Assembly (NCBI GenBank): GCA_020632095.1
Contig: JACKGF010000001.1
Span: 669,366 to 733,365 of the forward strand
Reading direction: 5' to 3'
From: Candidatus Nomurabacteria bacterium
GTDB lineage: Bacteria > Patescibacteriota > Minisyncoccia > Phycocordibacterales > UBA918
DNA length: 64,000 bases
The position numbers were made by a program, and so were the translations under genes. Under the pieces are notes generated by a model. The model searched no databases and was not told the origin of the DNA. It saw only the letters and a program-made list of their open reading frames with translations. Within the stretch, counting starts at the first letter, position 1. The number at the start of each line of letters is the position of its first letter. Of the stretch, positions 4,915 through 62,080 are shown one piece after another.

Positions 4915-4996
4915 CAATAAAGTAGCTAGAAACATTTGATTCAAATAATACCCAAATATTATACTTTGGTATTGGTATATGAATACACATACTATT

Positions 4997-5113
4997 TTGA
5001 ATGTTAAAACCGACAAGAAGTTGAAAGCTGAGGCCAAGAAAAGCAATCAAAAGCAAGTGCCGAGAGATGTTGGTGTTCAACCATTAGGCCGCACGGCCTT
5101 CACTTTGTATTGA
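4997..5113 (+). pseudogene. Remnant of DinJ/RelB-family antitoxin N-terminus (partial duplicate of 7921-8182), including operator-like palindrome upstream
   Basis: Approximately 100-nt near-identical copy of tatactttggtat..tatgaatacacatactattttgaatgttaaaaccgacaagaagtt.aaagc.gaggc.aa.aa; translates LNVKTDKKLKAEAKK.. then diverges; stop after 38 codons. Confidence 0.4.
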
Positions 5114-5169: not shown

Positions 5170-5754
5170 GTGAACATGAATCGTACTATTATAACCATCA
5201 CTGGTGCATCTGGTGTTGGCAAATCAACTCTTGAAGAAAGCTTAATCGAACACTTTGGTGGTGGCAGAATCGTCTCACACACATCACGAGACCCACGCCC
5301 AGGAGAGATTAAAACAAACTATGTTTTTTGCCAAAAATGGAAGTTGCGTTTTTGGATGTGCATTAACATCTTCTGTAGGACGGATTATTTATGGGTTATA
5401 AATGCCCATGGGAATCTGTATGCAGCACACACATCTCAATTCTATACTGCACTCAACGAGACTGGTTCGATTGCGTTTGGCTGCATATCGGACGGGTGTC
5501 ATCAGATAGTGGCCGATAGGTTTGAACCTGAGGGTATTGTCTGCAAAGCTATCCATCTGCTGCACCCAGGTGATTCTGAATTACGCCGTCGACTTGAAGG
5601 GCGCAAAGAAGATCCAGTCACCATTGAGAGACGCATCGAAAACTCCACAAAGTTAGAGAAAAAATCTCTAAAAAACCCTAATCTTTACCTGATTGAACCA
5701 GGTTCACCAGAGCAGGTTTTCAATCAAGTTATAGATATAATACACACCACCTAA
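5170..5754 (+). CDS. Divergent guanylate kinase-like P-loop protein (paralog)
   Basis: P-loop GASGVGKST; HTSRDPRPGE resembles the Gmk TTRxPRxGE motif; ..GNLYAAHTS resembles GNYYGTS; LRRRLEGRKED resembles LxxRLxxRGxD; central region divergent. Confidence 0.55.
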   Translation: MNMNRTIITITGASGVGKSTLEESLIEHFGGGRIVSHTSRDPRPGEIKTNYVFCQKWKLRFWMCINIFCRTDYLWVINAHGNLYAAHTSQFYTALNETGSIAFGCISDGCHQIVADRFEPEGIVCKAIHLLHPGDSELRRRLEGRKEDPVTIERRIENSTKLEKKSLKNPNLYLIEPGSPEQVFNQVIDIIHTT

Positions 5755-7367: not shown

Positions 7368-7625
7368 ATGCTCATCAGCTATAAACCATCGTTTGTTCGA
7401 GAGTTTAAAAAATTACCTGTTGAACTACAAGAAGAAGCAATGGAGAGAATAGATCTTTTCAAAGACGTTAAAAATCATAAAAAATTAAAAGTTCACAAAC
7501 TCAAAGGAAGACTCAAGGACTTCCACAGTTTTTCTGTTACTTATTCACATCGTATCGTTTTCAGTTATGAATCAAAGGAAGAAATAGTGCTTATCGCAGT
7601 TGGAGACCACGATGTCTATAAATAG
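7368..7625 (+). CDS. RelE/ParE-family toxin
   Basis: 85 aa; pattern F.KLP...Q......I.....P......KLKG.....HR.....YRIV....EEIVLIAVGDHDVY matches RelE/ParE. Confidence 0.7.
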   Translation: MLISYKPSFVREFKKLPVELQEEAMERIDLFKDVKNHKKLKVHKLKGRLKDFHSFSVTYSHRIVFSYESKEEIVLIAVGDHDVYK

Positions 7626-7769
7626 TGAGTTGGTGTAGAGTCACTTACGTTTACTCCATTTCAAATCCAGGCATGAACTGCCCCGATGCAAGGATGCGGA
7701 GTAAAGTTGGAATATACAACACTGCATCTCACTTTCCTTGAAACACAGCTCAAACCCCTCTTACTGACG

Positions 7770-7832
7770 CTGTTCAGGTTGTCGCTCTTACGAGCTGGCA
7801 ACCTCTTGCAAAAATGCCCCGCACTTTCTCAC
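7770..7832 (-). repeat. Copy A of a structured-RNA-like motif family (GTGAGAAAGT.YGGG..A.TTT.GCAAG + GNRA hairpin)
   Basis: Reverse complement reads GTGAGAAAGTGCGGGGCATTTTTGCAAGAGGTTGCCAGCTCGTAAGAGCGACAACCTGAACAG; homologous to 35684-35748 and 56847-56909 with compensatory stem changes. Confidence 0.5.
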
Positions 7833-7920
7833 TCTACGACGTCGCCCCTAAAGAAAGTAACTCCGCTTGACGCAAATAATACCAAAGTATATACTTTGGT
7901 ATATGAATACACATACTATT

Positions 7921-8182
7921 TTGAATGTTAAAACCGACAAGAAGTTAAAAGCCGAGGCTAAAAAGTTTCAGAAGAATTGGGTGTGCCTTTGAGCACTGTT
8001 ATTAATCTTTTCTAAAGCAATTTGTGCGCGATAAAGAGATAACTCTTTCCGCCAATCAGTACCGCCCTACCCCATACCTTGAAAGTATCCTTGAACAAGC
8101 TCAGTTAGAGTACGAAGCTGGTGATTTTGTAGGACCATTTAAAACTGGGGATGATTTTACTGCTCACTTGAAGTCTTTGTAG
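7921..8182 (+). pseudogene. DinJ/RelB-family antitoxin, disrupted by two frameshifts
   Basis: Three frames concatenate to MNVKTDKKLKAEAKK / VSEELGVPLSTVINLF / LKQFVRDKEITLSANQYRPTPYLESILEQAQLEYEAGDFVGPFKTGDDFTAHLKSL, a full-length DinJ-like antitoxin; perfect palindrome ATACCAAAGTATATACTTTGGTAT upstream is a candidate operator. Confidence 0.65.
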
Positions 8183-12771: not shown

Positions 12772-13200
12772 CTATAGTAAACGGAGCTGTTCTGTCTGCT
12801 TCGTCTTTCCTTGGTTTCTTACGTATCTTTCAACTTGTTGCCAGCTTCCCTTTTCAGAGATAGTAGAAATAAAGTAACCATCACTCCAAAATTCACCTCC
12901 CCACAACTCCTTCCGCAATTCAGGAAATTGCTTAAAGAGTTGTTTGGTTGTGATTGACTTAAACATACCCACTATCTCACTACCACTGTATTTAGGATGG
13001 AATGAACACAGTATGTGAATGTGATCACCGTCAGTACCCAATTGTTCAAACCAAACGTCATAACGTTCTGTCATAGCAGCAGCAATTTCCCGAATTGCTC
13101 TGGTAATAGGTGGTTCTAACAGTGCTTTACGGTATTTCACAGGAAAGACTATGTGGTAGTGGGTATCGAACACGCAGTGGTTACTTTTGACAATGCTCAT
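12772..13200 (-). CDS. tnpA: IS200/IS605-family Y1 (HUH) transposase TnpA, no adjacent tnpB
   Basis: HYHIVFPVKYR and HIHIL motifs (HUH and Y1 region); 142 aa; GC-rich subterminal hairpins at 12733-12753 (CAGGGGTAGAACCCCTG) and 13247-13267 (CCCCGCGGCAGAGCCGCGGGG). Confidence 0.85.
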   Translation of the reverse strand: MSIVKSNHCVFDTHYHIVFPVKYRKALLEPPITRAIREIAAAMTERYDVWFEQLGTDGDHIHILCSFHPKYSGSEIVGMFKSITTKQLFKQFPELRKELWGGEFWSDGYFISTISEKGSWQQVERYVRNQGKTKQTEQLRLL

Positions 13201-18625: not shown

Positions 18626-18879
18626 TGGTGTGTGGTATTAGAAACACTGTATTAATTAATATAGGTGTTTGTGCGTTTGAGGTGGGGATTCAAGGGGATA
18701 ATTAATCAGTTGACTAAACCGCCTTTCAGTAAAACAAACCCCGACTTCGGTCGGGGTTTGTTTTATATCTAAAAACCTTCGGCTTCAGCCGGAGTGTACG
18801 TTTGCAGGCAACGCATACACTAAATACAATACGTATACGCAAACGTACCATTAAAACCCTATCACATTGTTATTACGAA

Positions 18880-19289
18880 ATGAAATACCACCTGGTATGG
18901 ACTCCAAAATACCGAGGTAAGGTACTAGGTCCACAAAAGGTTAAAGACGAGTTACGAAGAACCTTTGAAACCATAACAAGATGGAAACACTGGGAAATCA
19001 TTGAACTCAATATCCAAGAAGACCATATACACATGATTCTATCAGCTTCACCTAGAGACTCCATCTCATACATAATGCAGATGATTAAAGGCACAAAAGC
19101 TCAGCTTGGTTAAAAAAGAAAATTAAAAGAGCTCATGGTCTTTATGAACAAAAGTCACCATGGGCCAGAGGCTATTTTGTTTCTACGATTGGTCTAGATG
19201 AAATGATTATCTGTCGGTATGTTAAACACCAACATCACCATAATCAAGTTGATCAACCATCTCTCTTTACCAAACTTATCTCTGATTAA
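18880..19289 (+). pseudogene. tnpA: IS200/IS605-family TnpA, frameshifted at an A-run
   Basis: MKYHLVWTPKYRGKV..HIHMILSASP..MIKGTKAQLG then a +2 frame continues ..KKKIKRAHGLYEQKSPWARGYFVSTIGLDEMIICRYVKHQ; frameshift at ggttaaaaaagaaaatt; hairpins on both sides (18726-18758; 19301-19316; 19354-19375). Confidence 0.6.
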
Positions 19290-19636
19290 CTATGTATCTG
19301 CCCGCTTCGCGGGCCTGAAGCTCACGCCGTTAGGTTGAGCCAAAGCCACCGGCCCTAAGGCCGGTAGTTGTTTACTTACAAAACCAACGTCCGTGGTTCA
19401 TTACAGATTGGATAGAGTTTGATTAACTTAATTTAATAGAAAAAATTATTAAACAAACATCTACTCGTCCCCCACCTAAAGAAGGTGACAAAAAGGAGGT
19501 TTTTGACAATGATGATTAATATTTATAAAAAATATTAATCTAGATCTAATGATGGGTTTTATTGGATTTGTGTAAGTGAGCTATTTTTAATTCTACCTTT
19601 CAAAACAAATTGTTTAAAATAACAAGAACTTTACTA

Positions 19637-29241: not shown

Positions 29242-29256
29242 AGAGGTTTAGTATAA

Positions 29257-29328
29257 CAGTTTGCTTGTTTCGTGGACACAAAACACCGGCAAAGGCCGGT
29301 GTCTGTTTTGTGTCCACGACTGGAGTTG
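29257..29328. repeat. 72-nt direct repeat (copy 1) comprising a tRNA-Leu 3'-end fragment plus a long bulged hairpin
   Basis: Identical to 29448-29519; contains gtccacgactggagttg (reverse complement of the tRNA-Leu T-loop and acceptor 3' strand) and hairpin GTGGACACAAAACACCGGC-AAAG-GCCGGTGTCTGTTTTGTGTCCAC. Confidence 0.85.
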
Positions 29329-29447
29329 GTCACAAGTTACTAAGTATAATTGTTCACTTCGTTCCAATTCTACTAAGTACTTTCGACCCCGCCTCGACTG
29401 CAGCATAGCTGCATGTCTGCGGCCTTCAACTCCAGACACAAGCAAAG

Positions 29448-29519
29448 CAGTTTGCTTGTTTCGTGGACACAAAACACCGGCAAAGGCCGGTGTCTGTTTT
29501 GTGTCCACGACTGGAGTTG
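29448..29519. repeat. 72-nt direct repeat (copy 2), overlapping the genuine 3' end of tRNA-Leu
   Basis: Exact duplicate of 29257-29328. Confidence 0.85.
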
Positions 29520-29585
29520 AACCAGCATGAGGAAACCCTCACTACCCCCTCAAGGTAGCGCGTCTACCAATTTCGCCACGTGGAC
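29502..29585 (-). tRNA. tRNA-Leu (anticodon GAG), type II with long variable arm; CCA not encoded
   Basis: Hand fold of the reverse complement: acceptor GTCCACG/CGTGGAC, D-arm GCG-AAATTGGTAGA-CGC, anticodon stem CTACC/GGTAG with loop TTGAGGG, variable stem GAGG-GTTT-CCTC, T-arm GCTGG-TTCAACT-CCAGT, discriminator A. Confidence 0.85.
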
Positions 29586-35153: not shown

Positions 35154-35311
35154 GTTTAGAAGAAGCTCATGAGTATCGTATACTCACATAGTAACCAATA
35201 CTGAATTAGAGACGACCGAGGCAAAGGGGCCATTTCAGGGACCCACCGCTTGTATTTTTCTGAAAAATTAGTACGATAGTGCTTACGTTCAAATAACGTC
35301 AAAATATTTCC

Positions 35312-35384
35312 GCGCGATTAGCTCAGTTGGTAGAGCAGCTCGTTTACACCGAGAAGGTCAGGAGTTCAAGTCTCTTATCGCGCA
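35312..35384 (+). tRNA. tRNA-Val (anticodon TAC)
   Basis: Acceptor GCGCGAT/ATCGCGC, D-arm GCTC-AGTTGGTA-GAGC, anticodon loop TTTACAC, T-arm AGGAG-TTCAAGT-CTCTT, discriminator A. Confidence 0.9.
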
Positions 35385-35391
35385 CACAGGT

Positions 35392-35444
35392 AAAACAAAG
35401 ACGCAATTCTTTTTTAGAATTGCGTCTTTGTTTTAGAAACTGAA
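35392..35444 (+). terminator. Strong hairpin directly downstream of tRNA-Val (candidate intrinsic terminator)
   Basis: AAAACAAAGACGCAATTCT-TTTT-AGAATTGCGTCTTTGTTTT, perfect 19-bp stem flanked by A/T runs. Confidence 0.6.
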
Positions 35445-35502
35445 CTGCTTCAGTTTCGTGCCTGTGTGCGAGGCGGAGACATATTTTCCTCCCCTTTCCT
35501 AG

Positions 35503-35577
35503 GGAGGGAAATAGTCGAGCCGGGGTAGCGAACACTTAGTAGAATTGGAACGTAGTGAACAATTATACTTAGTGATT
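35503..35577 (+). repeat. Approximately 72-nt core element shared (about 85% identity, inverted) with 29329-29400 next to tRNA-Leu
   Basis: gtcgagccggggtagcgaacacttagtagaattggaacgtagtgaacaattatacttagtgattcgtgacc aligns with the reverse complement of gtcacaagttactaagtataattgttcacttcgttccaattctactaagtactttcgaccccgcctcgac. Confidence 0.8.
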
Positions 35578-35683
35578 CGTGACCACTAAAATCCCCAACC
35601 CACATGCAAACTGCTTTGCTTCCGGAGAGACTTGAAAAGAGCGAATTTATCGCACGGAGCGGAGCGAGTATGATTTGAGCGCC

Positions 35684-35748
35684 GGGTGAGAAAGTCTGGG
35701 AGACTTTTGCAAGAGGTTGCCCGCTCGCAAGAGCGACAACCTGAACAG
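35684..35748 (+). repeat. Copy B of the structured-RNA-like motif family
   Basis: GGGTGAGAAAGTCTGGGAGACTTTTGCAAGAGGTTGCCCGCTCGCAAGAGCGACAACCTGAACAG; inner stem AAAGTC/GACTTT; hairpin GGTTG-CCGCTC-GCAA-GAGCG-CAACC. Confidence 0.55.
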
Positions 35749-35820
35749 AATTCGTAGAATTCGAGTAGTACAATATTTTGGAGTTCGGAGAACGAACAAA
35801 ATATTGATACGAAGGTGACC

Positions 35821-35834
35821 AAGTCTCTTATCGC
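35821..35834 (+). repeat. Duplicated tRNA-Val 3'-end fragment (aagtctcttatcgc), about 440 bp downstream of the tRNA
   Basis: gaaggtgaccAAGTCTCTTATCGCagacag matches tRNA-Val 35357-35383 (gaaggtcaggagttcAAGTCTCTTATCGCgcaca). Confidence 0.6.
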
Positions 35835-35906
35835 AGACAGACACTTTACAATACAATATATTCGTTATACTGTTCGACTAGCTGAAAGTTCACTTGGAGA
35901 TTTACC

Positions 35907-36467: not shown

Positions 36468-36592
36468 ATCTTTTTAGGAACTAAATCCGGGAAGAGACTT
36501 TAGGAATAACCACCCCACGACACAAAGGCACCCCGCTTTCTGTGACGATGGGGTGTCTTTTAATATGCAGGGCTCTTCTCTTATAAAACCAT

Positions 36593-36617
36593 TCTAACAT
36601 CGTCCCACAAGGTGCAA
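36593..36617 (+). repeat. Inter-unit conserved motif, site 1
   Basis: ttctaacatcgtcccacaaggtgca; embedded in a ~110-nt element about 80% identical to site 5. Confidence 0.7.
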
Positions 36618-36654
36618 GTAAGAACCCAGCTCCTTAACTAGCACTTTTTTTCGT

Positions 36655-36948: not shown

Positions 36949-36977
36949 GCCAAAATTATACCTTTTCTTTTAAAACC

Positions 36978-37002
36978 GTTCTAACGTCGTCCCACATGCT
37001 GC
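36978..37002 (+). repeat. Inter-unit conserved motif, site 2
   Basis: ttctaacgtcgtcccacatgctgca. Confidence 0.7.
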
Positions 37003-37064
37003 ACAATTCATTTTAGCTTTATTACAAAGGAAAATTTATTTGATTCCTTGGTACAATCATACGT

Positions 37065-37589
37065 ATGCAAATGATTGTTATTGGTCCTATGGGTAGCGGC
37101 AAAAGCACGCTAACAAGAAAGATTTCTCAGAAATTTAATATTCCAAGACTTGAATTGGATCGACTGTGGTTTGATGCTGGTGGTCATGATTGCTTAATGA
37201 ATGGTTGCACAAAAGAAGAGAAGCAGTTGGTTAAGGAAGAAATAAGCAAAAAGATTTCAGATTTTCTATCATCGAACAATCAATGGATCATAGATGGTAC
37301 TCATTCTACAATTCGACCATTACTGGCCGAAAAAGCTGATACAGTAGTCCTGATTCAAAGGCCGATACTGAATCGACTTTTTAGTCATGTAGTTAGGGTA
37401 ATCAAAGGTAAGGACCGACACCCTGAGACAGGCTTTTGGCAGGACCTTAAACATACCCTAACTATTTTTGATAGGTGGTTGCATAGTGGACATAAGAATC
37501 AGACTGATGCTGTAATGCCTTACAGAAACAAATTGGTTACTCTAAGAAGTTTTGAAGAGATTGATAGTTATTTTAATTCGCTTGTATAA
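37065..37589 (+). CDS. P-loop NTPase / adenylate-kinase-like (AAA, topology-modulation-protein-like) small kinase
   Basis: Walker A IGPMGSGKSTL; size and pattern like shikimate/adenylate kinase-like proteins. Confidence 0.5.
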   Translation: MQMIVIGPMGSGKSTLTRKISQKFNIPRLELDRLWFDAGGHDCLMNGCTKEEKQLVKEEISKKISDFLSSNNQWIIDGTHSTIRPLLAEKADTVVLIQRPILNRLFSHVVRVIKGKDRHPETGFWQDLKHTLTIFDRWLHSGHKNQTDAVMPYRNKLVTLRSFEEIDSYFNSLV

Positions 37590-37593
37590 AAAG

Positions 37594-37618
37594 TTCTAAC
37601 GTCGTCCCACAGGGTGAA
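37594..37618 (+). repeat. Inter-unit conserved motif, site 3
   Basis: ttctaacgtcgtcccacagggtgaa; followed by a bidirectional terminator hairpin (37621-37655). Confidence 0.7.
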
Positions 37619-37654
37619 CTCTAAAACTAAACCGCCAAATTGGGCGGTTTAGTT

Positions 37655-38065: not shown

Positions 38066-38095
38066 ATGTTTATGGTACATCATTAAAGAGAAAAA

Positions 38096-38120
38096 TTCTA
38101 AAGTCGTCCCACAAGTTAAA
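38096..38120 (+). repeat. Inter-unit conserved motif, site 4
   Basis: ttctaaagtcgtcccacaagttaaa. Confidence 0.7.
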
Positions 38121-38188
38121 CACTGAAAATAAGCCTGTTTTTCAAGGTTTTTGCATACGTAAGTAAAAAAGTAGATACTTTAGAACTT

Positions 38189-38566: not shown

Positions 38567-38632
38567 TTACAAAGAGACACTTTCTGAATCAGCCCTGCAT
38601 TTAATATGCAGGGCTCTTCTTTTGTAAAACCG

Positions 38633-38657
38633 TTCTAATGCAGTCCCACCTGGTGCA
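38633..38657 (+). repeat. Inter-unit conserved motif, site 5
   Basis: ttctaatgcagtcccacctggtgca; preceded by terminator hairpin CAGCCCTGCAT-TTAATA-ATGCAGGGCTC. Confidence 0.7.
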
Positions 38658-38674
38658 CACTGAATTCGAGTTCC

Positions 38675-52109: not shown

Positions 52110-53130
52110 CTTTCTCAGATCCGGCTCCCTCCAGCTACCCCTCAAGTAGGACAGATTGCTCATAATAATACTCACTCGAAATCCTAAAATCAATACACTC
52201 TTTCGGTCGGTCATTCAAGAAGGCATGAATCTCATTCAATTCTTCTTGAGTAACAGACGCAATGTCTCTCCGCTTTGGAACAAAGCATCTAATCCAACGA
52301 TTAGTATTCTCTACCAGTCCCTTCTCCCAAGAATGATAAGGGTGGCAGAAATAGATTGGAGCCTGTATGATTTGTTCTAGTTCCGTCCAGTGACGGAATG
52401 CAATGTCGTTGTCGGTGGTGATACTCTTGACTATAATATTGCTAAACATTTTAGAGAACGCTGCACTGATTGTGTGGCGTTTTCTATTGGGTAACTGACG
52501 TACCAAGCTGTATTTAGTTAAACGGTCAGTAGCCACTAGAAGTACGTATGGACTGTACTTAGAGACAATGAAGTCTAGTTCATAGTGACCTAGCTCATGG
52601 CTACCAAGAGGACGAATATCTATATATTTACGGCCATCATCAGCTGGTTTATGTGTGGTCCGTTTCGGACCACTTTTCTTTTTGTTCCAACGCCAGAATA
52701 GTCGATATTCCAGACCACGACTTTCTATGAACTTGTATATAGCTTTGGCGGAACAGGTAACACCGAGCTCTCGTTTGAGATGTCCACTGATTTGTTTAGG
52801 GGTCCACTTCTTCTCCAATTTGTCTTCTACGAAACGAATCAGGAAACTATCTAGAGCCACCTTGAGACACTGACGTTTAGCCCGCCAACGACGTTGACTT
52901 ACTTTTAGTTGGGCTTGCTTGGCGTCATAGACTCCATTAACCCTATTCTTCTTTAGTTCCTGACTGATGGTGTTGGGACTACGTTTGAGGAAGATGGCTA
53001 TTTCTCTGATCAAACTCCCTGCGTTCAATAACTTTTCAATTACGAAACGCTCCTCAAATTGTATGTGTCTGTATGTTTTCATAGACAGCTAATTTACTTT
53101 ATAGCTGTCCTACTTCAAAGGTGTCTGGGG
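52110..53130 (-). mobile_element. IS30-family insertion sequence (approximate boundaries)
   Basis: Transposase gene flanked by imperfect terminal inverted repeats containing GTAGGACAG (52126-52136) and CTGTCCTAC (about 53113-53123). Confidence 0.55.
52135..53082 (-). CDS. IS30-family DDE transposase
   Basis: N-terminal HTH; integrase core; C-terminal HPYHSWEKGLVENTNRWIRCFVPK parallels the IS30 ..[23 protein letters not shown] motif. Confidence 0.85.
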   Translation of the reverse strand: MKTYRHIQFEERFVIEKLLNAGSLIREIAIFLKRSPNTISQELKKNRVNGVYDAKQAQLKVSQRRWRAKRQCLKVALDSFLIRFVEDKLEKKWTPKQISGHLKRELGVTCSAKAIYKFIESRGLEYRLFWRWNKKKSGPKRTTHKPADDGRKYIDIRPLGSHELGHYELDFIVSKYSPYVLLVATDRLTKYSLVRQLPNRKRHTISAAFSKMFSNIIVKSITTDNDIAFRHWTELEQIIQAPIYFCHPYHSWEKGLVENTNRWIRCFVPKRRDIASVTQEELNEIHAFLNDRPKECIDFRISSEYYYEQSVLLEG

Positions 53131-56651: not shown

Positions 56652-56708
56652 GTGTCAGATTTGTAACATCTGGCTATAAATAAGCCCCTACCGAGAGGGG
56701 TCAAGAAA
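56652..56708 (+). repeat. Approximately 57-nt intergenic repeat (copy 1) containing CCCCTACCGAGAGGGG hairpin
   Basis: gtgtcagatttgtaacatctggctataaataagcccctaccgagaggggtcaagaaa is about 85% identical to 62024-62080. Confidence 0.7.
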
Positions 56709-56846
56709 GAGCGGCGTGAGTCGCTCGGAAACGCTTACGGGGCTTACTGGGTATTTTTCCGGTACGTCTAGGGGGCACACAGGTAAAACAATGTGCCGGA
56801 CGGAGCATGTGAGGAGCGCGCCTCTTAGCGCAACAAACAGCGAGAC

Positions 56847-56909
56847 GGGTGAGAAAGTCTGGGAGACTTTCGCAAGGTCTTGCGAAGTGACCTTGAGTCA
56901 CTTCTCACC
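56847..56909 (+). repeat. Copy C of the structured-RNA-like motif family
   Basis: GGGTGAGAAAGTCTGGGAGACTTTCGCAAGGTCTTGCGAAGTGACCTTGAGTCACTTCTCACC; hairpin GGTC-TT-GCGA-AG-GACC; GGTGAGAA..TTCTCACC closing stem. Confidence 0.55.
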
Positions 56910-57175
56910 TCTGGCTTGCTTCGCTCGCTAGCCACCCAGAAACTTCCTTTTATCGTTGTGAAAGTTTGCTTTCAAGAAAGCTAAACTTTTAGTCAACTCA
57001 ACATAAACAAAATATAGTCGTTTGTACCTTACTTCTTATTTTGCTAATCATTTTTTTGCACTCCTCCCCAAACCCCTCTTCGCTTGAATGAATTAGGCAA
57101 GGAAGTTTTTGGGTTGCTTTCGCTATGATGCAACAGTTATAGTTTCAGTGTCATAGTTATATGATTTGACACATA

Positions 57176-62023: not shown

Positions 62024-62080
62024 TGTCAGTTTTAAACATCTAGCTATACATAAACCCCTACCGAGAGGGGTTGAGAAAAA
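62024..62080 (+). repeat. Approximately 57-nt intergenic repeat (copy 2)
   Basis: gtgtcagttttaaacatctagctatacataaacccctaccgagaggggttgagaaaa. Confidence 0.7.

Follow-up and report, generated by a model that had tools for sequence, protein, structure and literature searches.

Nested members of a family of small non-coding insertion elements at the 3' end of a tRNA-Val gene in Candidatus Nomurabacteria

What is the roughly 440-nucleotide (nt) non-coding composite that follows a tRNA-Val gene in a Candidatus Nomurabacteria genome, and why does it end in a second copy of the 3' end of that gene? We addressed this question in a 64,000-nt stretch of contig JACKGF010000001.1 (assembly GCA_020632095.1), which we call the window and number from its first letter. 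The tRNA-Val gene (anticodon TAC) lies on the plus strand at 35312-35385 (ARAGORN; Rfam RF00005, 66.5 bits). A preliminary description had listed a terminator, a hairpin with a CTGC loop, a core common with a tRNA-Leu locus, a motif B and a tRNA-Val fragment, and every one of these is present where it was placed. The evidence presented below strongly supports that the composite (35384-35820) consists of two nested members of one element family. A short element 1 is nested within an older, long-form element 2, which is itself inserted in the T loop of the tRNA-Val gene. The composite does have the architecture of the tRNA-Leu copy, as had been proposed, but what was taken for extra cargo is a second, long-form member with its own ends and guide-like segment. 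The key feature was absent from that description: each element contains a segment complementary to the end of its target gene. We use X_e for the gene-end copy borne by the element, X_t for the displaced native end, X' for the complementary segment and Y for the hairpin with the CTGC loop.

Element 1 is a short form of 201 nt (35384-35584, plus strand; covariance model R1, 125 bits over 35459-35591). It occupies the acceptor end of tRNA-Val, with its left junction at 35383|35384 (uncertain by about 2 nt). Its right terminus is CGTGACC at 35584, followed by AC. A terminator-like hairpin with perfect 20-nt arms (35391-35435, plus strand; arms 35391-35410 and 35416-35435), found by repeat search and folding, sits at the tip of the left-end stem. 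Because an A-tract, the stem and a T-tract follow in that order, it reads as a terminator in both directions. Next is the Y hairpin, GAAACTGAA-CTGC-TTCAGTTTC, identified by sequence and folding, with a stem of 9 base pairs (bp) (35436-35457, plus strand). It is followed immediately by the complementary segment X'1, GTGCCTGTGTGCG (35458-35470, plus strand). X'1 is complementary to CGCACACAGG at 35380-35389, which comprises the end of tRNA-Val and the first bases of element 1. In the predicted fold, this pairing closes a three-way junction that encloses the terminator hairpin and the Y hairpin. The single-stranded DNA fold of 35377-35590 reaches -65.8 kcal/mol (z = -14.7), far beyond chance. The remainder of element 1 is the conserved scaffold (35471-35584, plus strand; alignments A3 and A7). 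Its 5' domain has two short helices and a variable hairpin with a CTTTCCTA loop. Its right end is a long hairpin with a conserved 12-nt loop, GAACGTAGTGAA, and the terminal GACC pairs with an internal G-rich tract.

Element 2 is a long form of 236 nt (35585-35820, plus strand), recognized by sequence, scaffold comparison and folding. Its terminus, GGTGACC (35814-35820), abuts the displaced tRNA end, and the final C is common with the T-loop C56. It has its own Y hairpin with a shortened stem, GCAAA-CTGC-TTTGC (35606-35619, plus strand; sequence and folding). Its complementary segment, X'2, is GGAGAGACTTGAA (35624-35636, plus strand), which matches TTCAAGTCTCTT in the T loop and T stem of tRNA-Val (35365-35376). 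When the fold was run with element 1 taken out, X'2 and TTCAAGTCTCTT formed a 12-bp stem. The replacement gene end of element 2 is now parted from element 2 by element 1. Motif B, GGGTGAGAAA-hairpin-TTGCAAGA-hairpin-TGAACAG (35684-35748, plus strand; repeat and scaffold comparison), also occurs in the window at 7770-7832 (minus strand) and 56846-56883 (plus strand). It is present as well in the long-form scaffolds of loci L009, L020 and L030, and these comparisons point to an optional internal domain of the long-form scaffold. A likeness of motif B to the P4 region of RNase P was rejected as chance, because the stem that contains it is variable among copies.

The gene end behind element 2 completes this layout. 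The 15-nt sequence CAAGTCTCTTATCGC, spanning the tRNA-Val T loop to the acceptor strand, is found exactly at 35367-35381 and 35820-35834. It has no third copy in the window, and two copies occurred in 0 of 100 shuffles. The displaced original 3' end of tRNA-Val, AAGTCTCTTATCGCAGACA (35821-35839, plus strand; direct-repeat comparison), carries two changes that would be expected to break the acceptor stem. The final 18 nt or so of the present gene (35368-35385) probably came from the inserted elements and not from the original gene end, as judged by the architecture of the family. In a related strain (L002), the Val locus is identical except for 19 substitutions. All of them fall within 35625-35753, three of them in the X' segment. 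A patch has evidently been exchanged between element 2 and another copy.

The tRNA-Leu copy (29257-29519, minus strand) was identified from its repeats, a covariance model score of 117 bits and its fold (z = -12.3). Its unique part is 119 nt long (29329-29447) and contains the 3' arm of Y, the X' segment TGTCTGGAGTTGAA, the scaffold and GTGACC. The parallel between the two loci that had been drawn earlier holds, with one correction: the Leu copy is flanked by 72-nt perfect direct repeats (29448-29519 and 29257-29328) and not just by a short tRNA fragment. Each repeat extends from the T loop through the terminator to the 5' arm of Y plus CTG. The core common to both loci (35513-35585 versus 29327-29399; 73 nt) is 86% complementary, so the Val and Leu cores are the same sequence on opposite strands. 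An empty Leu site exists in a related population. In L086, a k=141 contig from a different sample, the TGGTTC of the tRNA-Leu T loop is joined directly to a single copy of the repeat and then to the downstream gene, so the empty site is precise. The earlier suggestion of a non-coding inserted element is supported. Other contigs of the same population as the Leu locus stop inside the repeat or the element.

Two further members lie in the window. A diverged long-form member containing motif B is found at 7620-7880 (minus strand; repeats and scaffold comparison), with approximate 5' and 3' ends. A partial long-form member at 56770-56960 (plus strand) has the 5' domain and motif B. The covariance model matched the Val and Leu copies in full and this member in part (16.5 bits, at 56786). 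Its left end at 56775, GCACACAGGTAAAACAA, is a 17-nt sequence identical to 35381-35397, yet it lies at an unrelated site.

How widespread is the family? We used as a probe the 22-mer AATTGGAACGNAGTGAACAATT from the terminal hairpin of the core. It was found at 30 loci in species-representative genomes and at 42 metagenome loci. One match (L070) was rejected as a chance occurrence inside a GC-rich gene, which left 71 further loci. The named sources are nearly all Patescibacteria, including Saccharibacteria, Kaiserbacteria, Parcubacteria, Paceibacterota and Minisyncoccia. A covariance model built from 28 copies gave 94 matches in 58 loci, with at most 5 per locus, and up to 5 copies occur within 3 kb. 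The additional genomic copies that the preliminary description had proposed to align are abundant. Viral contigs contained no match to the 22-mer, and plasmid and phage sequences gave no blastn hit; on these grounds we rejected a phage or plasmid origin. It is well supported that these are non-coding, non-autonomous insertion elements of Patescibacteria, 120 to 250 nt long.

The targets are the ends of genes. Among 55 non-redundant copies with enough flanking sequence, 37 lie 100 to 330 nt downstream of a tRNA gene on the same strand, and 22 anticodons are represented. About 10 of the tRNA-linked copies carry a repeat of about 20 nt that starts at T-loop C56 in every case, and 24 are of the acceptor-end type. 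In the latter, AC follows the right end in about 16 of 19 copies and equals the discriminator A plus C of the tRNA. Protein genes are targeted in their last few codons: rplL in L016 and L018, an rplB-like gene in L009 and L028, and another gene in L014 and L020. The data firmly support insertion always in gene orientation and at the extreme 3' end of tRNA and conserved protein genes. The same holds for the insertion point in tRNA genes, which is either after T-loop C56 or just before the discriminator base. In L027 (1-360), three different scaffold subtypes stand in series, and the same tRNA end follows each of them. A repeat 1.6 kb apart in L027 had looked like an autonomous copy; it proved to consist of serial insertions together with unrelated open reading frames (ORFs).

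Some observations on tRNA loci stand apart from these counts. Further scaffold subtypes are stacked behind the same tRNA end in L027 (1-360) and L030 (100-350, minus strand). In some the terminal hairpin is shorter (CTTATGAGCGTAGCGAATTAG), and in others a different small scaffold ends in ATGACC. We take the loop of the CTTATGAGCGTAGCGAATTAG subtype to resemble the CS-6 hexamer of plasmid single-strand origins. In L032 (about 5480-5560), a tRNA-Met upstream of a copy seems to be without an intact 5' part and received no ARAGORN call. A further insertion, or an intron within the anticodon region, could be the cause. Group I introns were rejected as an explanation for the family, as the elements have no intron features and leave the tRNA intact. 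A Patescibacteria preprint on tRNA group I introns deals with position 35/36 and not with the T loop (10.1101/2025.07.03.662931).

All copies follow a common plan. On the sense strand of the gene, the gene body is followed by X_e, a terminator-like hairpin that reads in both directions, usually a Y hairpin, X' and the 5' domain. Then come the optional motif B domain of the long forms, the long terminal hairpin with the loop GAACGNAGTGAA and X_t; native terminators follow X_t. The last bases of the element are GACC (CCCC in one subtype), which pair with an internal GGTC (GGGG) tract. The repeat search reported no terminal inverted repeats at the element ends, and covarying hairpins are present at both ends. 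The Y hairpin mostly has a 9-bp stem. The covariation earlier proposed for this hairpin extends to the whole family, in that 20 of 32 detections have a CTGC loop and nearly every stem sequence is different. X' pairs over 10 to 26 nt with X_e and with the 2 to 5 host bases that precede the junction. This pairing always takes in the host TT(C) before the junction in T-loop copies, and overall it is a host TTC or CGC that is paired.

Protein-gene targets reveal where X_e comes from. In L020, about 11 positions distinguish the displaced gene end from the in-frame one; every difference is synonymous, and both copies encode VPAFLRRSKLK*. In L018 (a single insertion seen on five independent contigs), there are four synonymous differences, and X' matches X_e and not X_t. 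Because the differences at both loci are synonymous only, the replacement gene end was brought by the element and not duplicated from the target. The target gene stays intact, since the element carries X_e and usually a terminator. That X_t remains behind the element as a direct repeat is likewise well supported.

We then asked whether the predicted helices are maintained. In 62 copies fitted to the covariance model, standard pairs occupy 94.8% of cells, compared with 77.5% when columns were shuffled and 25.5 to 41.2% when partners were slid. Compensatory changes on both sides occur in 22 of 24 pairs, and the covariation score is 0.454 versus about 0.05. An independent MAFFT/RNAalifold analysis gave 17 of 24 compensated pairs. 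This covariation across copies shows selection to fold as a single strand. G.U pairs make up just 23 of 1,482 cells (1.6%), which is rare by the general expectation for RNA helices, and we lean slightly toward DNA over RNA as the folding strand.

These comparisons establish an orientation-specific, non-autonomous insertion with an element-borne gene end, single-strand folding and both termini in helices. How might such an element move? We tentatively suggest, as a possibility that we would not call probable, that it moves as a folded single strand and that both cleavage sites are set by base pairing as in the IS200/IS605 family. The strand would most likely be DNA. At the left end, X' would pair with X_e and the 2 to 5 host bases to form a long stem, with the terminator hairpin as a cap and the Y hairpin as a side branch. 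Because X' pairs across the junction, the left cleavage point would lie within a helix, and the element would determine the sequence of that helix. At the right end, the four final bases, GACC or CCCC, would pair with the internal G-rich tract where the terminal hairpin begins. With both termini in helices with internal segments, both cut sites would be specified by internal guides. These helices may define the cleavage sites as guide pairing does in IS200/IS605. The right-end pairings (GGTC:GACC and GGGG:CCCC) and the left X' pairing are seen in the sequences, their geometry is unlike that of IS608, and cleavage is a prediction from the pairing. In a new genome, X' could pair with the native gene end instead of X_e, and the element would home to that gene. 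The chemistry would be done by a trans-acting enzyme that is encoded neither in nor next to the elements.

A more ambitious proposal, about which we are doubtful, is that insertion is programmable. A guide of 10 to 20 nt in a conserved scaffold would direct the putative trans-acting enzyme, and insertion would be seamless, with the gene repaired from the copy in the element. If so, this combination of enzyme and guide has not yet been described.

Several points weigh against movement as a folded strand with pairing-defined cleavage. The empty Leu allele (L086 1-135 versus window 29250-29520) still has, behind the native terminator, the Y 5' arm and CTG. This allele is either a post-excision state or a sign that joining takes place at the loop of the Y hairpin. 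Most of the guide pairing is 3' of the cut; in IS608 the paired target is 5' of it. The 5' domain and the right-end hairpin are unlike one another, whereas the end hairpins of IS200/IS605 elements resemble each other. To our knowledge, IS200/IS605 elements neither carry target copies nor are flanked by repeats. The end hairpins of the two IS200-type elements in the window and of the one in L030 are unrelated to the family, and the scaffold is present in 0 of 21 loci that encode close homologues of the L030 TnpA. No enzyme for the elements was found within or beside the copies. Mismatch types (G.U versus A.C) have no strand asymmetry, so RNA of either strand would also fit the data. The Val and Leu copies are on opposite strands while GC skew has one sign across the window, which speaks against a strict lagging-strand bias (n = 2). 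Finally, the proposal does not account for the origin of new pairs of X_e and X'.

All-against-all comparison of the ORFs within 3 to 5 kb of copies at about 70 loci returned host synteny only and no recurrent protein. Among the window ORFs scanned, there was no integrase, reverse transcriptase, TnpB or IS110 enzyme; there were two IS200-type transposases and one IS30-type. An IS200 TnpA was considered as the partner, as the TnpA gene in L030 abuts a scaffold, and was rejected because the end hairpins differ. We judged this adjacency to be nesting in a junkyard region, given the different ends and the 21 TnpA loci without a scaffold. A synteny search by means of the SNF2 gene gave no homologue above 45% identity. 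Rfam matched only tRNA above the gathering score in the window, and its matches in 35250-35900 at E <= 10 were hairpin-like microRNA noise. Promoter-like hexamers in the terminal hairpin were dismissed on reading, as their spacing is wrong.

Could the scaffold instead act as RNA? It might be transcribed, with X' as the guide of a structured RNA that directs an unlinked recombinase to the gene end, like an IS110 bridge RNA or an omega RNA. One such guide could serve donor and target, since both carry the sequence X. The multi-helix scaffold, with its conserved unpaired residues, optional motif B and very strong covariation, looks like a functional RNA, and the guide-like segment is directly 5' of it. 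The native terminators after X_t and the bidirectional terminators at the left end would also suit a transcript. However, no recombinase gene is adjacent, whereas in the IS110 and omega systems the enzyme is encoded in cis. We see no evident promoter, the share of G.U pairs is low (1.6% of cells), and Rfam offers no match even at E <= 10. A nuclease version has an additional difficulty: since X_e restores the target, the occupied locus would itself be cut. We consider RNA-guided recombination unlikely. An even less likely cis-acting role without mobility, in which a structured RNA or terminator module is spread by homologous recombination after natural transformation, would explain why the elements provide terminators to tRNA genes. 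Their host genes are also highly conserved, and recombination between species could use the flanks of these genes. Against it, several subtypes are stacked at one tRNA, as many as 5 copies occur within 3 kb, the tRNA-Val-type left end recurs at the unrelated site 56775, and the right-side homology is just 2 to 20 nt. We regard this last explanation as very improbable.

The remaining alternatives invoke known recombinases. Integrases prefer gene 3' ends, and the family may be miniature elements with little beyond an attP, left from or parasitic on tyrosine-recombinase elements, with the repeats as attL and attR; cis-mobilizable elements (CIMEs) are comparable. The targets (the T loop at the 3' ends of tRNA genes and rplL-type genes), the replacement gene end, the repeats of 15 to 37 nt, the tandem accretion of copies at one site and a size near that of a typical attP all agree with this. 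Integrase lineages are site-specific, however, and here near-identical scaffolds serve at least 22 tRNA species and several protein genes. There is no integrase near any of about 70 loci, and the covarying stems and internally paired termini imply a single-strand folding that duplex attP arms do not need. The integrase explanation, which we think quite unlikely, thus fits the choice of targets and not their multiplicity or the folding. Folding would be accommodated if the element were a single-strand attachment site for a host recombinase, as in CTX phage with XerCD or integron attC with IntI. The X_e:X' hairpin would mimic a duplex target, one strand would be exchanged, and replication would resolve the intermediate. 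The topology is suitable, with direct repeats of the target at both ends and an inverted copy beside one end, and no element-encoded protein is associated. Tandem arrays, which CTX-type elements need to regenerate the single strand, also occur. But Xer and IntI read conserved boxes, and the targets here share only the C before the cut and have no GTTRRRY-type boxes, which makes both the folded attachment site and this strand-exchange route improbable. Movement as a folded strand with pairing-defined cleavage is the reading that we keep, with the caution expressed above.

If movement is guide-directed, these elements would be a natural counterpart of engineered long-guide IS608 and could point the way to a compact enzyme for programmable insertion. 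The address segment differs between copies, and the scaffold is highly conserved across distant Patescibacteria lineages; the element sequence appears to encode its own address. The tiny genomes of Patescibacteria can tolerate many copies in essential genes (tRNA, rplL and rplB-like genes), because the element repairs what it cuts. There are also practical consequences. The elements break metagenome assemblies at tRNA loci, and they create tRNA fragments and pseudo-terminators that annotation pipelines are prone to misread.

Other repeats and mobile elements lie in the window. The preliminary description had linked the tRNA-Val composite to the cassette-like array downstream; we found no such link, and the array repeats (GTTCTAACGTCGTCCCAC) are unrelated in sequence. 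The intergenic motif AAAACCGTTCTAACGTCGTCCCACANGGTGCAC has five copies on the same strand (36587-36631, 36974-37018, 37589-37633, 38091-38135 and 38628-38672), between small accessory genes (kinase-like, SRPBCC, GNAT and pterin dehydratase), and is unrelated in sequence to the tRNA elements. A direct repeat of 69 to 89 nt (4952-5040 and 7878-7964) consists of a promoter-like palindrome and the first codons of an antitoxin-like gene. It brackets 2.9 kb of accessory genes just after tRNA-His, with the scaffold at 7620-7880 (minus strand) at the right edge. A 49-nt repeat, 86% identical between 56660-56708 and 62030-62078, contains AAGCCCCTACCGAGAGGGGT; the first of these copies lies in a region that looks structured, with a NUDIX gene on one side and the partial element at 56770 on the other. 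The intact IS200-type transposase at 12772-13200 (minus strand) has its own end hairpins. The other IS200-type element (18770-19380) is a pseudogene with a lost start codon and a frameshift, and its protein is 84 to 89% identical to that of L030 (Paceibacterota). Short metagenome contigs carry this TnpA family in great abundance, and its named sources are Patescibacteria. The IS30-type transposase (52135-53082, minus strand) is flanked by 27-nt inverted repeats.

How does the family compare with known systems? Like IS200/IS605 elements such as IS608, its members have no terminal inverted repeats, strand-specific hairpin ends and seamless excision sites. At the right end, the outermost bases have their pairing partner in a short tract at the 5' base of the terminal hairpin, and at the left end an internal segment pairs with the bases immediately 5' of the predicted cut. 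Small protein-less derivatives, the palindrome-associated transposable elements, are also known in that family. In IS608, longer pairing between transposon and target raises specificity, and engineered versions with extra pairing selected 12- to 17-nt sites in vitro, the extra pairing being on the other side of the cut than here (Morero et al., PMC5934647). The family differs in that its guide is 10 to 20 nt long and pairs mostly 3' of the cut and in that it carries a copy of the target and hence is repeat-flanked. IS200/IS605 elements have a short fixed target and no flanking repeat, whereas here the repeats range from 2 to 72 nt and the targets vary. The two end structures of the family do not resemble one another, nor do they resemble those of the IS200 copies in the same genomes. 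No cognate TnpA was found, and the ends do not resemble those of a TnpA-encoding parent (12772-13200, 18770-19380 and L030; 0 of 21 loci). Classical miniature inverted-repeat transposable elements have terminal inverted repeats and a target-site duplication of fixed length, and the family has neither.

With tyrosine-integrase elements and CIMEs, the family shares integration at the same gene 3' ends, an element-borne replacement gene end, att-like direct repeats and tandem accretion. It differs in having one scaffold for dozens of targets, no integrase, an inverted core copy and single-strand folding; full-length relatives that encode an integrase, with one target per lineage, are not what we observed. 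The attC sites of integrons and the CTX attP(+) have similarly long imperfect hairpins in which structure is kept while stems vary, mimic a duplex partner and depend on a protein encoded elsewhere. The family differs from them in that it has no recombinase-binding boxes, its stem copies an arbitrary host gene end, and it has an extra scaffold of 100 to 200 nt. On reading, integron boxes (RYYYAAC...GTTRRRY) were absent from the element ends, and the window ORFs scanned included no integrase. The bridge (seek) RNAs of IS110/IS1111 offer another likeness, as one structured non-coding module has segments complementary to the target and to its own end. By contrast, the family has no linked DEDD recombinase gene and has long flanking repeats, and it is known from DNA sequence alone. 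Literature searches by concept and by sequence string, which were incomplete in coverage and left ISfinder outside the comparison, returned no description of the family. Small non-autonomous insertion elements, predicted guide-defined cleavage as in IS200/IS605 and gene-end-restoring integration as in CIMEs are apparently combined here in a new way.

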